A DNA stretch of 64,000 nt from Candidatus Palauibacter sp. (GCF_965213655.1 NZ_CBDBZT010000003.1:2637389-2701388); one strand, 5' to 3'. Numbered from the stretch's first letter, positions 18,578 through 26,373 are shown. Translations and numbers: made by a program. The notes: generated by a model from the letters alone, not told the origin.

Positions 18578-19045
18578 TCAGGCGATAGGTACGATGTCGA
18601 GCTCCGTTGTGATGTCGATGCAGCCGGAAAGCGTACGGTAGACCGGACACTTCGGCGGATGGGCTTCGAACGCGCGCCGGATCGCATCGGCGTGTTCCTC
18701 GTCCGCCTGGAGACGATACCGGGCCCGGATCCGTCGGATCACGAGCACTCCGTCCTCCGTCTCGACCTCGCCCTCCACGTTCGCCACCAGCCGTCCCTCG
18801 TCTGCCTTTACGCCGCGCGCTTCCAGCGCGCCCCCGAAGGTTCCGGCCAGTCAGCCGCCGGTCGCGGCGATCACGTAGTCGAGTGTGGTGGCGATGTCCC
18901 GCTGATTGCGGACCCCGTAGTACGCGGCGATCGCGGAGTGGACACCGAAGTCGACCGGCGCGTCCGTGGCCGGGATCTCCGCCGTGCGGTACGGCCCCTT
19001 CTGCCGCACGATCTTCACATGCGAACGGTAGACGACGTCACTCAT
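18578..19045 (-). CDS. OsmC/Ohr-family peroxiredoxin-like protein with in-frame TGA (18851-18853) at the conserved peroxidatic-Cys position; candidate selenoprotein, or disrupted gene
   Basis: Upstream part ...DYVIAATGG-TGA-LAGTFGGAL... aligns to the AALGGC-L peroxidatic Cys motif; second conserved Cys in AHPPKCPVY is 68 residues downstream; downstream part has a GTG start only; ATGA coupling to the Nudix gene. Confidence 0.6.
18805..18840 (-). ncRNA. Candidate bacterial SECIS-like hairpin in the mRNA 3' of the in-frame UGA (cis element, not a separate gene)
   Basis: mRNA CCUU-CGGGG-GCGCGC-UGGAA-GCGCGC-GGCGU-AAGG beginning about 15 nt after the UGA; apical loop UGGAA about 30 nt from the UGA. 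Confidence 0.35.
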
Positions 19046-19731
19046 TGGCTGGTTCTCTCCATGAAGATGTCGAGGAAGTTCATGACGACCCGGTGCGTGA
19101 GCCCCCATATGGTGTCGCCCTCGTACAAGATGGAAGGCCAGATGTGCTCTCGGCCACCATCGGGGTAACGGACCTCGGAACGCCGGGCGGGGTCGCGCAG
19201 CGCCCCGAGCGGGGCCCAGATGTGGTACTGCACCTCGGCGTTCGTCGAAACCCTCACGTCCGCCTCGTGCCACGCAACGAAGGGCGAGATGAGGATCGAC
19301 GGGATCCGGCGCGTCACGGGGTGCAGGTCGTTGAGCCGCCCCAGGAACGCGCTGCGCGGGAGATCGAGCCCCACTTCCTCGCGCGTCTCGCGGCGCGCCG
19401 TCTCCAGGAGATCCGCATCGGCGGCGTCACGGTGTCCCCCGGGGAGCGCCATGTGGCCCGACCACGGGTCGCCCGGAACGTCCGCCCGCCGGACGAACAG
19501 GACCTCCAGTTCACCGCCGCGCGGACGGACAACGAGAGTTACGGCCGCGTGTCGCTCCGCCGCTCCCGGCTCGACGACGGTGTGGCCCGCCGCCGCCAGT
19601 CGGCGCGCGACCCAGCCGGCGCTCCAGTCCCCGTTCAGCGGGCCTTCTCCGCTTCGTCGAGCAGCCGCAAATAGCTCTCCAGCCGACGCCGTTCGATCGT
19701 CCCGCCCTCCACCGCTGCGACCACCGCGCAA
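19042..19731 (-). CDS. Nudix hydrolase (CoA pyrophosphatase NudL-like)
   Basis: Nudix box LPGGHRDAADADLLETARRETREEVGL; stop overlaps the OsmC ATG; start uncertain (TTG about 19731; overlaps the rsgA 3' end). Confidence 0.65.
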   Translation of the reverse strand: MRGGRSGGGRDDRTASAGELFAAARRSGEGPLNGDWSAGWVARRLAAAGHTVVEPGAAERHAAVTLVVRPRGGELEVLFVRRADVPGDPWSGHMALPGGHRDAADADLLETARRETREEVGLDLPRSAFLGRLNDLHPVTRRIPSILISPFVAWHEADVRVSTNAEVQYHIWAPLGALRDPARRSEVRYPDGGREHIWPSILYEGDTIWGLTHRVVMNFLDIFMERTSQ

Positions 19732-20583: not shown

Positions 20584-21081
20584 TCACGCGGAGGCGCCGT
20601 CGGCGTCCGTCCCGTCGCCCAGCTCCTCGAGGCAGTTCCACGCCAGCAGCGCGCACTTGATGCGGACCGGGAACTTCGAAACCCCCGCAAGCGTGCGCAG
20701 GTCGCCGAGGGTGTCGTCCGACAACAGCGCGCCATCGCCGTGCAGGAGGTGCGTGAACTTTACGGAGAGTTCCAGCGCCTCATCGAATGACTTCCCGAGC
20801 ACGCGTCCCGTGAGCATCGACGCCGACGCCTGGCTGATCGAGCACCCCCGGCCCAGGAAGCGCACCTCGGCGATGCTCCCTCCCTCCACGCGCAACATGA
20901 GTTCGATCACGTCGCCGCAGAGGGGGTTGTTCATCGTGATCACGTGCGTGGCCTCGTCCAGGCGCCCCTTGTTCCGCGGCTTCCGGTAGTGATCGAGGAT
21001 GACCTCCTGGTACAGCTGATTGAGCGAAGAAGGGATCTCCCGGTCGATGGTCCCGGGCGTCCCCGGACGAGATTCGGTCAT
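20584..21081 (-). CDS. sufU: SUF-system Fe-S cluster assembly scaffold (SufU/NifU-like)
   Basis: NPLCGD ... GCSISQAS ... KCALLAWN conserved Cys motifs. Confidence 0.85.
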   Translation of the reverse strand: MTESRPGTPGTIDREIPSSLNQLYQEVILDHYRKPRNKGRLDEATHVITMNNPLCGDVIELMLRVEGGSIAEVRFLGRGCSISQASASMLTGRVLGKSFDEALELSVKFTHLLHGDGALLSDDTLGDLRTLAGVSKFPVRIKCALLAWNCLEELGDGTDADGASA

Positions 21082-21085
21082 GGGC

Positions 21086-22426
21086 TCAGGCTATGCCGCC
21101 GAAGACTTCGGCGGCCATGGCAAGGCCATCGCACAGCGCGTCGATCTCCTCCGGCGAATTGTAGAAGTAGAAGCTCGCGCGGGCCGTGGCGCTGATCCCG
21201 TAGTGGTCCATCAGCGGCTGATTGCAGTGGTGCCCCGCCCGAATCGCGATGCCCCGCTGGTCGAGGATCGTGGAAAGGTCATGCGGATGTATGTCGCCGT
21301 ACGTGAAGGAGAAGACCGCGGTCCGCCCCTCGCGCGGGCCGTACAGGTGAAGCCCCTCGATCTCCCCGAGTCGGTTGAGGGCGGCGCTCTTCAGGGTGTT
21401 CTCATGCGACGCGATCGCCTCGGGCCCCAGGTCCGCGAGGAAGCGGGCGGCCTCGCCGAAGCCGACGACGCCCGAGATGTTGGGGGTCCCGGCCTCGAAC
21501 TTGTGCGGCACCTGCGCCCAGGAAGACCCCTCGAGCCTCACCTCCGAGATCATCTCGCCCCCGCCCTGGTACGGAGGCATCTCCGCCAGCAGCTCGCGTC
21601 TGGCCCACAATGCCCCGACCCCGGTCGGACCACACATCTTGTGGCTGCTGAACGCGTAGAAGTCGCACCCGATCCCGGCCACGTCGGTCAGCATGTGGGG
21701 CGCGGCCTGCGCTCCGTCGATGAGCGTCAACGCGCCGGCGGCGTGCGCCCGGTCCACGATCTCCCGGACCGGATTGAGGGTCCCGAGGCTGTTGGAGACG
21801 TGGGTGCACGCGACCAGCCGGGGTCGCTTCTCGAGGAGCCGGTCGAAGTCGTCCAGATCGAGGGTGCCCCCGGGGGTCACGTCGACGAAGTGGAGGTCGC
21901 ACCCGGTGCGGTCTGCGAGCAGTTGCCACGGCACGAGGTTCGAGTGGTGCTCCATCTTCGTGAGCACGATTCCGTCGCCCGCGCCGACGAACGCATCCCC
22001 CCAACTCGACGCGACGAGGTTCACCGCCTCCGTCGTGCCGCGCGTGAACACGATCTCTGCCGGGTCCGCCGTACCGGCATGCGCGGCCACGGAGCGCCGC
22101 GCGTCCTCGTAGGCCTCCGTCGCCTCCGCGCTGAGCTGATGCACGCCGCGGTGCACGTTGGCGTGCTGCTCGCGCAGATAGCGCTCGACCCGGTTCAGAA
22201 CCCGTAGCGGCTGCTGCGAGCTTGCGGCGTTGTCGAGATAGGCCAGAGGGTGGCCGTTGACCTCCCGCGAGAGGATGGGGAACTGGGCCCGGATCGCCTC
22301 GAGATCCCAGCGGCCCGCCTCCGCACCGTCGCCCGCTCCGGTATCGGCGTCGCCTCCGGAGGGACGGTTGGACGCGAGCACACCCGTCGCGCGCGTCGCC
22401 TCCGTCATCTCCGTCATCTCCGCCAT
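21086..22426 (-). CDS. sufS: Cysteine desulfurase SufS (class V aminotransferase)
   Basis: LDNAASSQ, PLP-lysine region SSHKMCGPTGVG, active-site RAGHHC. Confidence 0.9.
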   Translation of the reverse strand: MAEMTEMTEATRATGVLASNRPSGGDADTGAGDGAEAGRWDLEAIRAQFPILSREVNGHPLAYLDNAASSQQPLRVLNRVERYLREQHANVHRGVHQLSAEATEAYEDARRSVAAHAGTADPAEIVFTRGTTEAVNLVASSWGDAFVGAGDGIVLTKMEHHSNLVPWQLLADRTGCDLHFVDVTPGGTLDLDDFDRLLEKRPRLVACTHVSNSLGTLNPVREIVDRAHAAGALTLIDGAQAAPHMLTDVAGIGCDFYAFSSHKMCGPTGVGALWARRELLAEMPPYQGGGEMISEVRLEGSSWAQVPHKFEAGTPNISGVVGFGEAARFLADLGPEAIASHENTLKSAALNRLGEIEGLHLYGPREGRTAVFSFTYGDIHPHDLSTILDQRGIAIRAGHHCNQPLMDHYGISATARASFYFYNSPEEIDALCDGLAMAAEVFGGIA

Positions 22427-22454
22427 CGGGCTCCGGTCCTCGGCTGGGTCCGGC

Positions 22455-22766
22455 TCAGTCGAGGTCGACCTGGATGTCGTCCCCGTCGATCCGTACGTCG
22501 AAGCGCCGGACGGGCATGACCGCGGGTAGCGCCCGCGGCGCGCCGGTCGCGAGATCGAAGCGCGCCCCGTGCAGGAGACAGGTGACTTCCCCCGCCTCGA
22601 CCTCGCCATCGGAGAGCGGGAACTCCTCGTGCGAGCAGCAGTCCTCGAGCGCGTAGATCTCCCCTCCGCTCCGGATGAGTGCGATCGCCAGATCTCCGGC
22701 CATCACGCCGCACGTCCCGTTCTCCGGTACGTCGTCGACTCTGGCCACCGTGACGAATCGGCTCAT
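22455..22766 (-). CDS. Rieske [2Fe-2S] domain protein embedded in the suf operon
   Basis: CSHEE ... CLLHGARF = CxH-x17-CxxH. Confidence 0.8.
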   Translation of the reverse strand: MSRFVTVARVDDVPENGTCGVMAGDLAIALIRSGGEIYALEDCCSHEEFPLSDGEVEAGEVTCLLHGARFDLATGAPRALPAVMPVRRFDVRIDGDDIQVDLD

Positions 22767-24094
22767 AGCCCGATCTTCTCCTCGATCGCTTCGCGTACGC
22801 GTGCCCGCACGCCCTCCATGGGGAGGCGTCCCAGCACCTCATCGAAGAACCCGAACACGAGCAGGCGCTCGGCCTGCCGCCGCGTGAGGCCGCGGCTCAT
22901 CAGATAGAAGAGTTGTCCGTCCTCCACCTGTCCGATCGTCGCTCCGTGCGAGCAGCGCACATCGTCGGCCTCGATCTCCAGATTGGGAAGCGCCGAGGCG
23001 TGGGAGCCCGCGCTCAGGAGCAGGTTGCGGTTCGTCTGATAGGCGTCGGTGAGCTGGGCTCCCTTGTCGACCCGGATCAGCCCTCGGAAGACGCTCGAAC
23101 CCGCGTCCGTCAACGCGCCCTTGAACAGAAGGTCGCTGTGCGCGTGCGGGGCCGCGTGATGCTGCAGCGTGTGGTGGTCGAAGTGCTGGTTGGAATCGCC
23201 GAACCACAGCGCGAGCATCTCGCTGTCGCTCCCCGGGCCGTCGAGACGGCTCGTGACGTCCGCCCGCGAAAGGTCACCCCCCAGCGCGACGTTGAAGGTC
23301 ACGACGCGCGAGTCACGGCCCGCAGTCACGTGCTGCGTCGAGAACCGCTTCACGCCCCGGCCGAAGCGCTGCAGCGCGACGTACTCGATGCCGGCGCCGC
23401 CCTCGCCCGTGATCGTCGCGCCGTGAAGCGAGACCGTCTCCGCATCGAGGTCGTCGGAGAGGAACTCGTCGATGACCGCCGCCCGCGCCCCCGACTCGCC
23501 GTACACGAACGAGTGCGCCGAGGACAGCGTCCCCGCCCGCTCGACGATGTGAAACGCATGGATGGGCGCCGGCATCTGCACCCCGCGCGGCACGTGCAGG
23601 AAATAGCCCCCGCCCAGGATGGCGAGGTGCAGCGCCCACAGCTTCTCCTCGGCCGGTCCCGGCTGCGCCTCGAACAGCGCGCTCCGCAGCAACTCCGGAT
23701 GCCGGGCCGCGGCGTCCCGGATCGAGCACAGGACGACGCCGGTCCGCGCCACCTCGGGTTCGAGTTCGAGGTGCGCGATCCGTCCGTCCCGCAGCACGAC
23801 GACGCCGGCGCGTTCCCCGGAATGGCCGAGCACCTCGCGTACGTCCGCCGGCAGCGCTTCCACCGCGGCGGGCGTCGGGACCACCGGCGTGAGCGCCTCG
23901 AAGCCGATCTTCGTGAGGTCGGTGTAACGCCACTCTTCCGACTTCTTCGTCGGCCAGGGAAGGGCTGTGAACCGTTCCCATGCGGCGGCGCGAGCGCCCG
24001 CGAGCGTTTCCGGCTCCGTCAGCTCGCCGGAAAGCGTATCAAAATCCGTCGCGGCCAGCGTCGACTCCGCCGGCCCGGCCGTCAGCGTACTCAT
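22763..24094 (-). CDS. sufD: Fe-S cluster assembly protein SufD
   Basis: SufBD beta-helix family; position between sufB and sufS; 4-nt overlap with the Rieske gene. Confidence 0.85.
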   Translation of the reverse strand: MSTLTAGPAESTLAATDFDTLSGELTEPETLAGARAAAWERFTALPWPTKKSEEWRYTDLTKIGFEALTPVVPTPAAVEALPADVREVLGHSGERAGVVVLRDGRIAHLELEPEVARTGVVLCSIRDAAARHPELLRSALFEAQPGPAEEKLWALHLAILGGGYFLHVPRGVQMPAPIHAFHIVERAGTLSSAHSFVYGESGARAAVIDEFLSDDLDAETVSLHGATITGEGGAGIEYVALQRFGRGVKRFSTQHVTAGRDSRVVTFNVALGGDLSRADVTSRLDGPGSDSEMLALWFGDSNQHFDHHTLQHHAAPHAHSDLLFKGALTDAGSSVFRGLIRVDKGAQLTDAYQTNRNLLLSAGSHASALPNLEIEADDVRCSHGATIGQVEDGQLFYLMSRGLTRRQAERLLVFGFFDEVLGRLPMEGVRARVREAIEEKIGL

Positions 24095-24137
24095 ATCAGG
24101 AAGATTCCTCGTGGTCTGTGGCTGGGACTGCGGTTGG

Positions 24138-25553
24138 CTATCCGACCGACCCTTCCATCTCCAGTTCGATCAGCCGGTTCAGCTCGATCGCGTACTCGAG
24201 CGGCAACTCCTTGGCCACCGGCTCGATGAAGCCGCGCACGATCATCGCCATCGCCTCCGCCTCGTCGAGGCCGCGGCTCATCAGATAGAAGAGCTGTTCG
24301 TCGCCGACCTTGGAGACGGTGGCCTCGTGCCCGATCGACGCCGTGTTCTCATCGATCTCGATGTAGGGGTAGGTATCCGTGCGGGACTGCTCGTCGAGCA
24401 GCAGGGCGTCGCACTCGACGTTGGACTTCGCGCCCACGGCGCCGTCGTACACCTTGCACAGCCCACGGTACGATGAGCGCCCGAGCCCCCTCGAGATCGA
24501 CTTCGACGTGATCTGCGACGTCGTGTTGGGGGCGGCGTGGATCACCTTCCCGCCCGTGTCCTGGTGCTGTCCGTCACCAGCGTACGCGATGGAGAGGATC
24601 TCGCCGTGCGCCCGCTCTCCGACGAGGTAGCACGACGGATACTTCATCGTGAGCTTCGAGCCCAGATTCCCGTCGAGCCATTCCATCTTGGCCTCCTCGT
24701 GCACGAGCGCCCGCTGCGTGACGAGGTTGTACATGTTGTTCGACCAGTTCTGGATCGTCGTGTACCGGAAGCGCGCGCCCTTCTTGACCACGATCTCGAT
24801 CACACCGGAGTGGAAGGAGTCGGTCGAGTAGACCGGCGCCGTACAGCCCTCGATGTAGTGGGCTTCGGCCCCCTCTTCGCAGATGATGAGGGTGCGCTCG
24901 AACTGGCCCATCTTCTCGGCGTTCACCCGGAAGTAGGCCTGGAGCGGAATTTCTACTTTCACCCCTTTCGGGATGTAGACGAACGATCCGCCGGACCAGA
25001 CCGCGGAGTTCAGCGCCGCGAACTTGTTGTCGTGCGTGGGGACGATGGTCGAGAAGTACTGCCGGAACAGTTCGGGGTGCTTTGCGAGCCCGTCCTCGAT
25101 CGACTCGAAGATCACGCCCTGCTCCTCCCACTGCTCCTTCAGCGAGTGGTAAACCATCTCGGACTCGTACTGCGCCCCGACCCCGGCGAGCGCCTTACGC
25201 TCCGCTTCGGGAATCCCGAGCTTCTCGAACGTGTCCTTGATCTCCTGCGGGACGTCGTCCCAGGACCGCTCCATCTGATCCTGCGGCTTGAGATAGAAAT
25301 AGATCTCGTCGAGCGTGTCCTCGAGCCTCGACAGATCCCCGCCCCACTTCGGCATGGGCTTGGAGTAATAGACGTCGAGCGCCTTGAGTCGGAACTCGAG
25401 CATCCACTCCGGCTCTTCCTTGTGATGCGAGATCTGTCGGACGATGTCGCTGGAGAGGCCGGGGACGGCCTTGAAGACGGGCTTGTCCTCCGTGACGAAT
25501 CCGTACTTGTATTCGTCGAGTCCGAGTCCGGTGATCGTCTCGTTCTGGGGCAT
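24138..25553 (-). CDS. sufB: Fe-S cluster assembly protein SufB
   Basis: Highly conserved SufB sequence ([11 protein letters not shown] ... [27 protein letters not shown]). Confidence 0.95.
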
Positions 25554-25599
25554 GTCTCTTCCTTCCTTTACCGTCTCGGATACAGCCGAGGCTAAAGCG

Positions 25600-26373
25600 T
25601 CAGACCGCCGCCACCGCCCGGTGGAGCCAGTCGTAGCCCTCGGCCTCCAGCTTGTCGGCGAGCGAGGCGCCGCCGCTCTCGGCGATGCGGCCCGCCATCA
25701 TCACGTGTACTCGATCCGGCTGGATATAGTTCAGGATCCGCTTGTAGTGCGTGATGAGCAGGACCCCGAGCGCCTCGTCGGCTTCGGCGAGGCGGTTCAC
25801 GCCGTTGGCCACGACCTTGAGCGCGTCGATATCGAGTCCGCTGTCCGTCTCGTCCAGGACCCCGAGCGCCGGCCGAAGCACGGCCATCTGCAGGATCTCG
25901 TTCCGCTTCTTCTCGCCGCCGGAGAAGCCGTCGTTCACATACCGGGTGGCGAAGCCCGGATCCATCTTCAGCATCTCCATCTTCTCCATGAGCGTGCGCT
26001 GGAACCCGAACACGTCCATTTCCTCGCCCTCACCCAGCCGCGCGTTCACGGCGGTGCGCAGGAAATTGGCGATCGACACGCCCGGGATCTCGGCCGGATA
26101 CTGGAAGGCGAGAAAGATCCCCGCGCGGCTCCGCTCATCCGGCTCGAGTTCGAGGACATCCTCCCCCTCGAACAGGATCTCGCCGGCCGTCACCTCGTAG
26201 GCGGGGTGGCCGGCGATGACCTTGGCGAGCGTGCTCTTTCCCGAGCCGTTGGGTCCCATCAGCGCATGCACCTCGCCGCGCTCGACATCCAGATCGACGC
26301 CGCGGAGGATCTCCCCGTCCTCGCCTTCGACCCTCGCCCGGAGTCCGCGTATCGACAGAAGCGGTTCTGACAT
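25600..26373 (-). CDS. sufC: Fe-S cluster assembly ATPase SufC
   Basis: Walker [13 protein letters not shown] signature FSGGEKKR, Walker [13 protein letters not shown]. Confidence 0.95.

Follow-up and report, generated by a model that had tools for sequence, protein, structure and literature searches.

The window, the 64,000-nucleotide stretch of Candidatus Palauibacter sp. DNA that was analysed, carries on its minus strand an OsmC-like gene interrupted by one in-frame stop codon. Translation of positions 18578-19045 on this strand gives 155 codons with a single internal stop, a TGA at 18851-18853, which lies in the context ...DYVIAATGG-TGA-LAGTFGGALEAR...KCPVYRT.... The gene, its proposed functional elements and its neighbours are arranged as follows:

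18578..19045, minus strand: proposed complete gene of an OsmC-fold selenoprotein, 155 codons, with its ATG at 19045-19043 and the true stop TGA at 18580-18578
18854..19045, minus strand: the N-terminal 64 codons 5' of the UGA, conserved in 80/80 of the best relatives
18851..18853, minus strand: in-frame TGA, codon 65, the proposed selenocysteine (Sec) codon, at the peroxidatic-Cys position; TGA in 81/81 orthologues
18815..18831, minus strand: proposed bacterial SECIS apical hairpin, GCGCGCU-GGA-AGCGCGC, with a 7-bp stem and a GGA loop
18647..18649, minus strand: TGT codon of Cys133 (KCPVY), the proposed resolving Cys; C133-P134 is invariant in the family alignments
18578..18787, minus strand: GTG-start 69-aa fragment, annotated as an 'OsmC' gene in the source assembly
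19042..19452, minus strand: Nudix hydrolase gene, 5' of the OsmC gene; its TGA stop (19044-19042) overlaps the OsmC ATG (ATGA)
20584-26373, on the OsmC strand: suf operon, sufC-sufB-sufD-Rieske-sufS-sufU(NifU_N), corresponding to L088 2415-8204
24138-25553: SufB, 471 aa; a gene of the same length is present in the source contig calls (L088 3235-4650)

The genes 5' of the OsmC gene lie on one strand in the order sufC, sufB, sufD, Rieske, sufS, sufU, rsgA and Nudix, and an M20 peptidase gene converges on the OsmC gene from its downstream side. The presence of a Rieske gene within the suf operon is unusual. Both the ATGA junction between the Nudix and OsmC genes and the suf-rsgA surroundings are as described in an earlier note made from the sequence alone, which took them as consistent with a redox function. 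Synteny of sufS-rsgA-Nudix-OsmC is retained only in Palauibacterales-like relatives, and the suf-rsgA-Nudix context was rejected as evidence of function for that reason. The Nudix gene ends at the TGA within this ATGA, so the operon also uses UGA for normal termination.

Automated gene calling breaks the OsmC gene at the internal TGA. A mechanical ORF list splits it into 18851..19273 and the GTG-start piece 18578..18787; both parts lie in one frame, as the earlier note had read them, and the 3' segment, in which the note saw no ATG, begins with GTG. The window sequence is identical to part of ENA ERZ25070917, contig ctg125720_32x_l (3.37 Mb, 32x long-read), where the gene calls at the locus are two ORFs of 64 aa and 69 aa. 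The 64-aa ORF, which corresponds to the N-terminal piece 18854..19045, has no Pfam match. The 69-aa 'OsmC' call is an annotation artefact caused by the UGA.

When the TGA is read as Cys, the read-through protein matches the Pfam OsmC family PF02566 over residues 55-148 (E=4e-12, 46.9 bits against a cut-off of 27.5), and a profile built for the subfamily finds Thermus thermophilus OsmC (1UKK) with E=1.6e-4. Position 65 aligns with the first Cys of 1UKK (...AAHAGC...) and Cys133 with the second (...GCPVSR...), so that the two positions are 68 residues apart; the aligned AAHAGC and GCPVSR cysteines are the peroxidatic and resolving cysteines of OsmC/Ohr proteins. The placement of the TGA at the peroxidatic-Cys motif, and of a second conserved Cys (KCPVY) some 66-68 residues further on, had been proposed from the sequence alone and agrees with these alignments. 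Homologues of the Cys form (P0008, P0014, P0016, P0023-25, P0045 and others) likewise align a Cys to the UGA column.

The structural comparison was made with an AlphaFold model of the orthologue P0008, which is 54% identical to the window protein (pLDDT 95.4). The top 50 PDB matches of this model are all of the OsmC/Ohr type, with query-normalised TM scores of 0.61-0.74. Superposition on 2ONF, 1USP, 1NYE, 1UKK and 1LQL gives TM scores of 0.63-0.74 at sequence identities of only 10-20%, and the Sec/Cys position is located within the long central helix of the model. Profile matches and the model together establish a predicted OsmC fold for the product of the window gene, with both catalytic positions aligned. 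By analogy with the characterised fold family, the protein would be a hydroperoxide reductase and is a predicted peroxide-detoxifying enzyme.

Conservation of the TGA was assessed by a genome scan with one genome per species. The scan covered 185,579 species and yielded at least 583 relatives, the best 80 of which were examined together with the window. TGA occupies the same codon in all 81 sequences, and a conserved N-terminal region of 62-73 residues precedes it in the best 80 relatives. These relatives come from Gemmatimonadota, Acidobacteriota, Chloroflexota (Dehalococcoidia, SAR202 and Anaerolineae), Actinomycetes, Rokubacteria, Poribacteria and Dormiibacterota, the closest being Candidatus Palauibacter (Gemmatimonadota) with 92-94% protein identity. 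One locus labelled as an Acidimicrobiia bacterium (L004, JAGWAK010000002.1) has an OsmC gene that is 92% identical and is fully syntenic with the Palauibacter loci (sufS-rsgA-Nudix-OsmC-M20); this contig is probably mis-binned or mislabelled. The earlier note had considered that orthologues might carry a Cys codon and no hairpin, and the orthologues, with TGA in 81/81, came out in favour of recoding.

Selection acts on both sides of the TGA. In 46 pairs of closer relatives, dN/dS has a median of 0.155 for the part upstream of the codon and of 0.135 for the part downstream, which shows that the two parts are translated, and under selection, in this frame. These data bear on whether the locus is a pseudogene, or whether a TGC or TGT was turned into TGA by a mistake in sequencing or assembly. 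TGA is a single base change away from either Cys codon, and each of the three annotation pipelines ends the gene there. The same TGA, however, recurs in 80 assemblies made independently for members of seven phyla, the two flanking gene segments both have a dN/dS of about 0.15, and the source is a 32x long-read contig whose sequence is identical to the window. The chance of a pseudogene or an error is extremely small.

A variant code that assigns UGA to Trp or Gly has even less to recommend it. Several full-length JGI products do show Trp at the site, and in the DNA of P0002 this 'W' is a TGA translated under another code. Against such a code, 44/81 genes of the OsmC orthologue set and 13/18 neighbouring gene calls terminate at TGA, and an enzyme with Trp or Gly as its catalytic residue would be inactive. 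A search of the 64-kb window for in-frame-TGA genes gave 13 candidates, 12 of which look like antisense-frame artefacts, leaving the OsmC gene as the one credible case. UGA is thus an ordinary stop that is recoded only here, and the probability of a changed code is vanishingly low. Taken together, the conserved TGA, the selection on both sides and the use of TGA as the usual stop effectively exclude pseudogenisation, misassembly and codon reassignment alike. At the Sec column, the metagenomic homologues P0031 and P0040 carry Gly and Arg, respectively, and each codon is a single base away from TGA; these residues may reflect sequencing errors, artefacts of translation or copies without activity.

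The codon that follows the TGA is CTN (Leu) in 64/81 sequences, the window included, and ATG in 17/81. A homology search returned 628 matches, and most of the best ones are products of 86-96 aa whose first residues, M[TLM]GTFGGALEAR, start one codon downstream of the TGA, as expected where a gene caller stops at UGA. The ATG found directly after the TGA in 17/81, together with the 87-96-aa proteins that PGAP calls there, could be taken to mean that the locus holds two small genes, a 64-aa peptide and an independently started C-terminal OsmC fragment, which form a split protein. The leucine codon found at this position in the other 64 is not a normal start, however, and in the window the first in-frame start after the TGA is the GTG at 18787, where initiation would remove the active-site helix. 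The Cys-form homologues are single chains, and a split protein would have no catalytic residue left at the peroxidatic position. Two separate genes are accordingly very improbable, and a single chain read through the UGA is preferred.

Immediately downstream of the UGA, the mRNA of the single read-through gene can form the GC-rich hairpin at 18815-18831. Its loop begins 26 nt past the UGA, the whole hairpin falls within codons +7 to +12 (G-A-L-E-A-R), its folding energy is -11.2 kcal/mol, and its sequence is unique in the window. Published criteria for the bacterial SECIS (bSECIS) call for 3-9 nt in the loop, 4-16 bp in the stem and a G in the first two loop positions, with a spacing of 16-37 nt and a minimum free energy of -7.5 kcal/mol or lower (PMC13188914). 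The window hairpin lies within all of these limits (GGA loop, 7 bp, 26 nt, -11.2 kcal/mol), and 68/81 sequences pass the same filter; the remaining 13, all from Chloroflexota, fail only the rule on the loop G. Random positions in the window, with its 68% GC, pass the filter in 12.9% of cases and are equally stable in 3.6%, and the 81-nt fold at the site has a z-score of -1.88. Taken singly, the window hairpin is weak evidence; its significance comes from conservation across species.

This conservation is visible in the choice of synonymous codons. Across the 81 species, codon entropy at +7, +8, +9 and +11 (Gly, Ala, Leu and Ala) is 0.38-0.64 bits, compared with about 1.5-1.9 bits for neighbouring four-fold degenerate codons. 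The hairpin is encoded by GGC GCG CTG GAR GCG CGY, and 95.9% of the alignment cells are paired. No compensatory covariation was seen in the hairpin in the 81-sequence alignment, because its pairs are almost invariant; the argument therefore rests on synonymous-site constraint and not on covariation. RNAalifold did not recover the hairpin from all 81 sequences and gave only a weak consensus, because two hairpin registers were mixed. After the alignment was split into 68 and 13 sequences, both hairpins were recovered.

The second hairpin belongs to the 13 Chloroflexota sequences (L033, L035, L043, L044, L050, L052, L058, L062, L063, L067, L068, L071 and L072). It occupies the same place and has the form GCGG-(bulged Y)-GCC-CUUGA-GGC-YCGC, with energies of -9 to -14 kcal/mol. 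The variant, about 20-45 nt after the TGA, has a single bulged nucleotide on its 5' side and CUUGA as its loop, and may be a lineage-specific form of the SECIS. Rfam at gathering scores found nothing relevant to the hairpin in the whole window, and at E<=10 the only match around the site was a chance one to M23 sRNA. As for the structure first proposed for the window, the GCGCGC/GCGCGC apical stem is conserved, but the CCUU/AAGG lower stem is not conserved in relatives, and the minimum-energy fold uses CCUUCG/CGAGGG in its place. The assignment of the hairpin as a bacterial SECIS agrees with the published criteria and with its conservation across relatives.

Homologues that carry Cys provide a control for the role of the hairpin. 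In the old Cys clades represented by L084 (GTLGRALT) and L086 (GTFGGALAGR), the hairpin and the GGALEAR peptide are both lost. In L083, a Pyrinomonadaceae MAG (JBJMGP010000060.1, 3001-3474) that encodes protein P0008, the Sec column holds TGT and the hairpin is fully intact (GGC GCG CTG GAG GCG CGC). From its sequence, L083 looks like a very recent Sec-to-Cys conversion with a relic SECIS. Deep Cys forms thus exist, and the hairpin is absent from the long-standing ones, which answers in favour of recoding the check that the earlier note had put forward, namely Cys versus U at this column in homologues.

The GGALEAR peptide (window 18815-18838, codons +5 to +12) is invariant in the Sec forms, and the old Cys clades drift at the same site to GRALTIR, GGALAGR and NTALMAR. 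Loss of both the hairpin and the motif in the old Cys clades, together with retention of the hairpin in L083, indicates that the SECIS appears to freeze GGALEAR. This pattern suggests that the embedded hairpin, and not the function of the protein, fixes these residues in the Sec forms.

Genes for the Sec machinery were sought around the loci. In the window and the 80 loci (1.4 Mb), tblastn with E. coli SelA, SelB and SelD found no selA, selB or selD, and ARAGORN found no tRNA-Sec in the 64-kb window and 60 loci (L001-L060). ARAGORN also made two over-long 'tRNA-Gly' calls, at L030:13150-13241 (92 nt) and L060:5228-5327 (100 nt); neither was confirmed as a tRNA by Rfam, and neither is a tRNA-Sec.

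The identity of the inserted residue has to be weighed at this point. The same hairpin could drive read-through of the UGA with insertion of Cys or another amino acid, by a selC-like Cys-tRNA or by near-cognate suppression. No UGA-decoding tRNA was seen in the window and L001-L060, and Cys works at this column in the homologues. Some Acidobacteria and Deltaproteobacteria are reported to have selC-derived tRNAs by which UGA is read as Cys, which also counts in favour of this reading. Retention of TGA in 81/81 sequences across seven phyla would nevertheless be pointless if Cys were inserted, because TGT and TGC are one mutation away and such a change does occur (L083). Furthermore, two sponge-derived Gemmatimonadetes bins of 67-68% GC both carry the Sec-synthesis genes SelA and SelD as well as SelB (Slaby et al. 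2017, PMC5649159, Table S4); these bins are the single indirect line of support for Sec machinery in the source genome. Insertion of a residue other than Sec is on these grounds decidedly improbable.

The reading that best accounts for the data, at a probability of roughly 0.92, is that 18578..19045 is a genuine selenoprotein gene encoding an OsmC-fold peroxidase in which the UGA at codon 65 is read as Sec. The conserved UGA, selection on both of its sides, the conserved hairpin and the Cys-form homologues all support the candidate selenoprotein of the earlier note. The product would be a single 154-residue OsmC-fold thiol/selenol peroxidase. By analogy with the established SelB/SECIS mechanism, the GC hairpin at 18815-18831 with its GGA loop would act as a bacterial SECIS during translation, recruiting SelB-GTP and Sec-tRNA(Sec) to the ribosome paused at the UGA, so that Sec would be inserted and termination avoided. 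The OsmC/Ohr two-Cys mechanism likewise provides a model for catalysis: Sec65, in the long central helix, would attack the hydroperoxide and be converted to a selenenic acid, which Cys133 of the CPVY motif would resolve to an intramolecular selenenylsulfide. The selenenylsulfide would then be reduced by a cellular thiol reductant. The segment after the UGA would be dually coding, in that the SECIS inside the coding sequence would also freeze the peptide GGALEAR in the Sec forms.

An OsmC-like selenoprotein was described from the Sargasso Sea in 2005 (Zhang, Fomenko and Gladyshev, PMC1088965) and again in GOS, and reviews from 2022 and 2026 still list a single family (PF02566, UxxT). The earlier note's statement that both a Sec and a Cys form of OsmC-like proteins exist is correct (Zhang et al. 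2005, PMC1088965), but the published family is a different subfamily from the one in the window. The published sequence AACY01145085 reads ...GIGF-U-LLTQLKRYA...QGCFAEN... (PMC1088965 supplement). Used as a positive control, it scores 157.4 bits on the NCBIfam model NF041052, 'OsmC-related (seleno)protein' (cut-off 95); the same model gives the window protein 13.8 bits and none of nine diverse relatives more than 18.3 bits. A BLASTP comparison of the window protein with AACY01145085 gave only a 12-residue active-site match, in which U is aligned with U. The low NF041052 scores and the restriction of the match to 12 residues assign the window gene to another OsmC subfamily, whose Sec sits at the homologous position. 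Other OsmC/Ohr models do not claim the protein either: on TIGR03562 OsmC (cut-off 85.8) it scores 19.3 bits and the eight relatives that match score 13-27.5 bits, and on the Ohr models it scores below the cut-off.

The window protein and the NF041052 family share the PF02566 superfamily, Sec at the first catalytic Cys position in the central helix, a second conserved Cys downstream and a coding-region hairpin after the UGA. They differ in the motif around Sec (GG-U-L-A-G-T-FGGALEAR in the window versus GIGF-U-L-L-T), and the UxxT motif of the published family is not present in the window protein, where U-L-A-G-T places the T at +4, in contrast to the published U-L-L-T. They also differ in the length of the N-terminus before U (64 residues versus 39), in the second Cys motif (KCPVY versus QGCFAE), in the sequence of the SECIS and in their host lineages, those of the window subfamily being high in GC. 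With OsmC (E. coli, T. thermophilus 1UKK) and Ohr, the window protein shares the fold, the spacing of about 66-68 residues between the catalytic positions and CP(V) at the second Cys; it differs from them in having Sec in place of the peroxidatic Cys.

The hairpin conforms to the bSECIS consensus in being an in-ORF stem-loop just after the UGA, with a 3-nt loop that starts with GG and a 7-bp upper stem. Its sequence does not resemble that of the E. coli fdhF SECIS, and its main form lacks a bulged U; its binding by SelB is a prediction. Sec peroxiredoxins (Prx, TxxU) and glutathione peroxidases resemble the window protein in being thiol peroxidases with a peroxidatic Sec and in having Cys homologues, but they adopt the thioredoxin fold and not the OsmC fold.

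The subfamily motif was not found in the accessible part of the GOS supplementary sequences, and no description of the subfamily was found in the open-access literature and a part of its supplements. The kind of protein is already known; the subfamily appears to be uncatalogued and is widely mis-annotated. On balance, the comparisons lean towards a second, independently recognisable Sec-containing OsmC subfamily, apparently absent from the 2005 Sargasso, 2008 GOS and 2022/2026 catalogues and from the NCBI models, which is present in at least 80 species of at least seven phyla, is systematically mis-annotated and has had its GGALEAR peptide frozen by the SECIS hairpin. RefSeq holds its members as 87-96-aa 'OsmC family protein' fragments, such as WP_419166165.1 (90 aa), which starts one codon past the UGA. 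Counting these fragments, the ENA pairs of 64 aa and 69 aa and the JGI products with an active-site Trp, hundreds of database entries are wrong, and a curated Sec-aware model akin to NF041052 would repair the entries of the subfamily.

No principle is changed by these findings, since Sec/Cys exchange in thiol peroxidases, the OsmC-like family included, has been known since 2005. If the proposed role of the hairpin is true, GGALEAR would clearly illustrate how the structure of an RNA can constrain the sequence of a protein, and the homologues would offer a natural series for following that constraint, which begins with Sec forms, passes through a recent Cys convert with its SECIS still in place and ends with old Cys clades in which hairpin and motif have both decayed. 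For Gemmatimonadota (Palauibacterales), SAR202/Dehalococcoidia, Acidobacteriota and further lineages that are mostly uncultured, the subfamily would represent an additional predicted selenoenzyme for peroxide detoxification, and the gene would mark these host lineages as selenium users.
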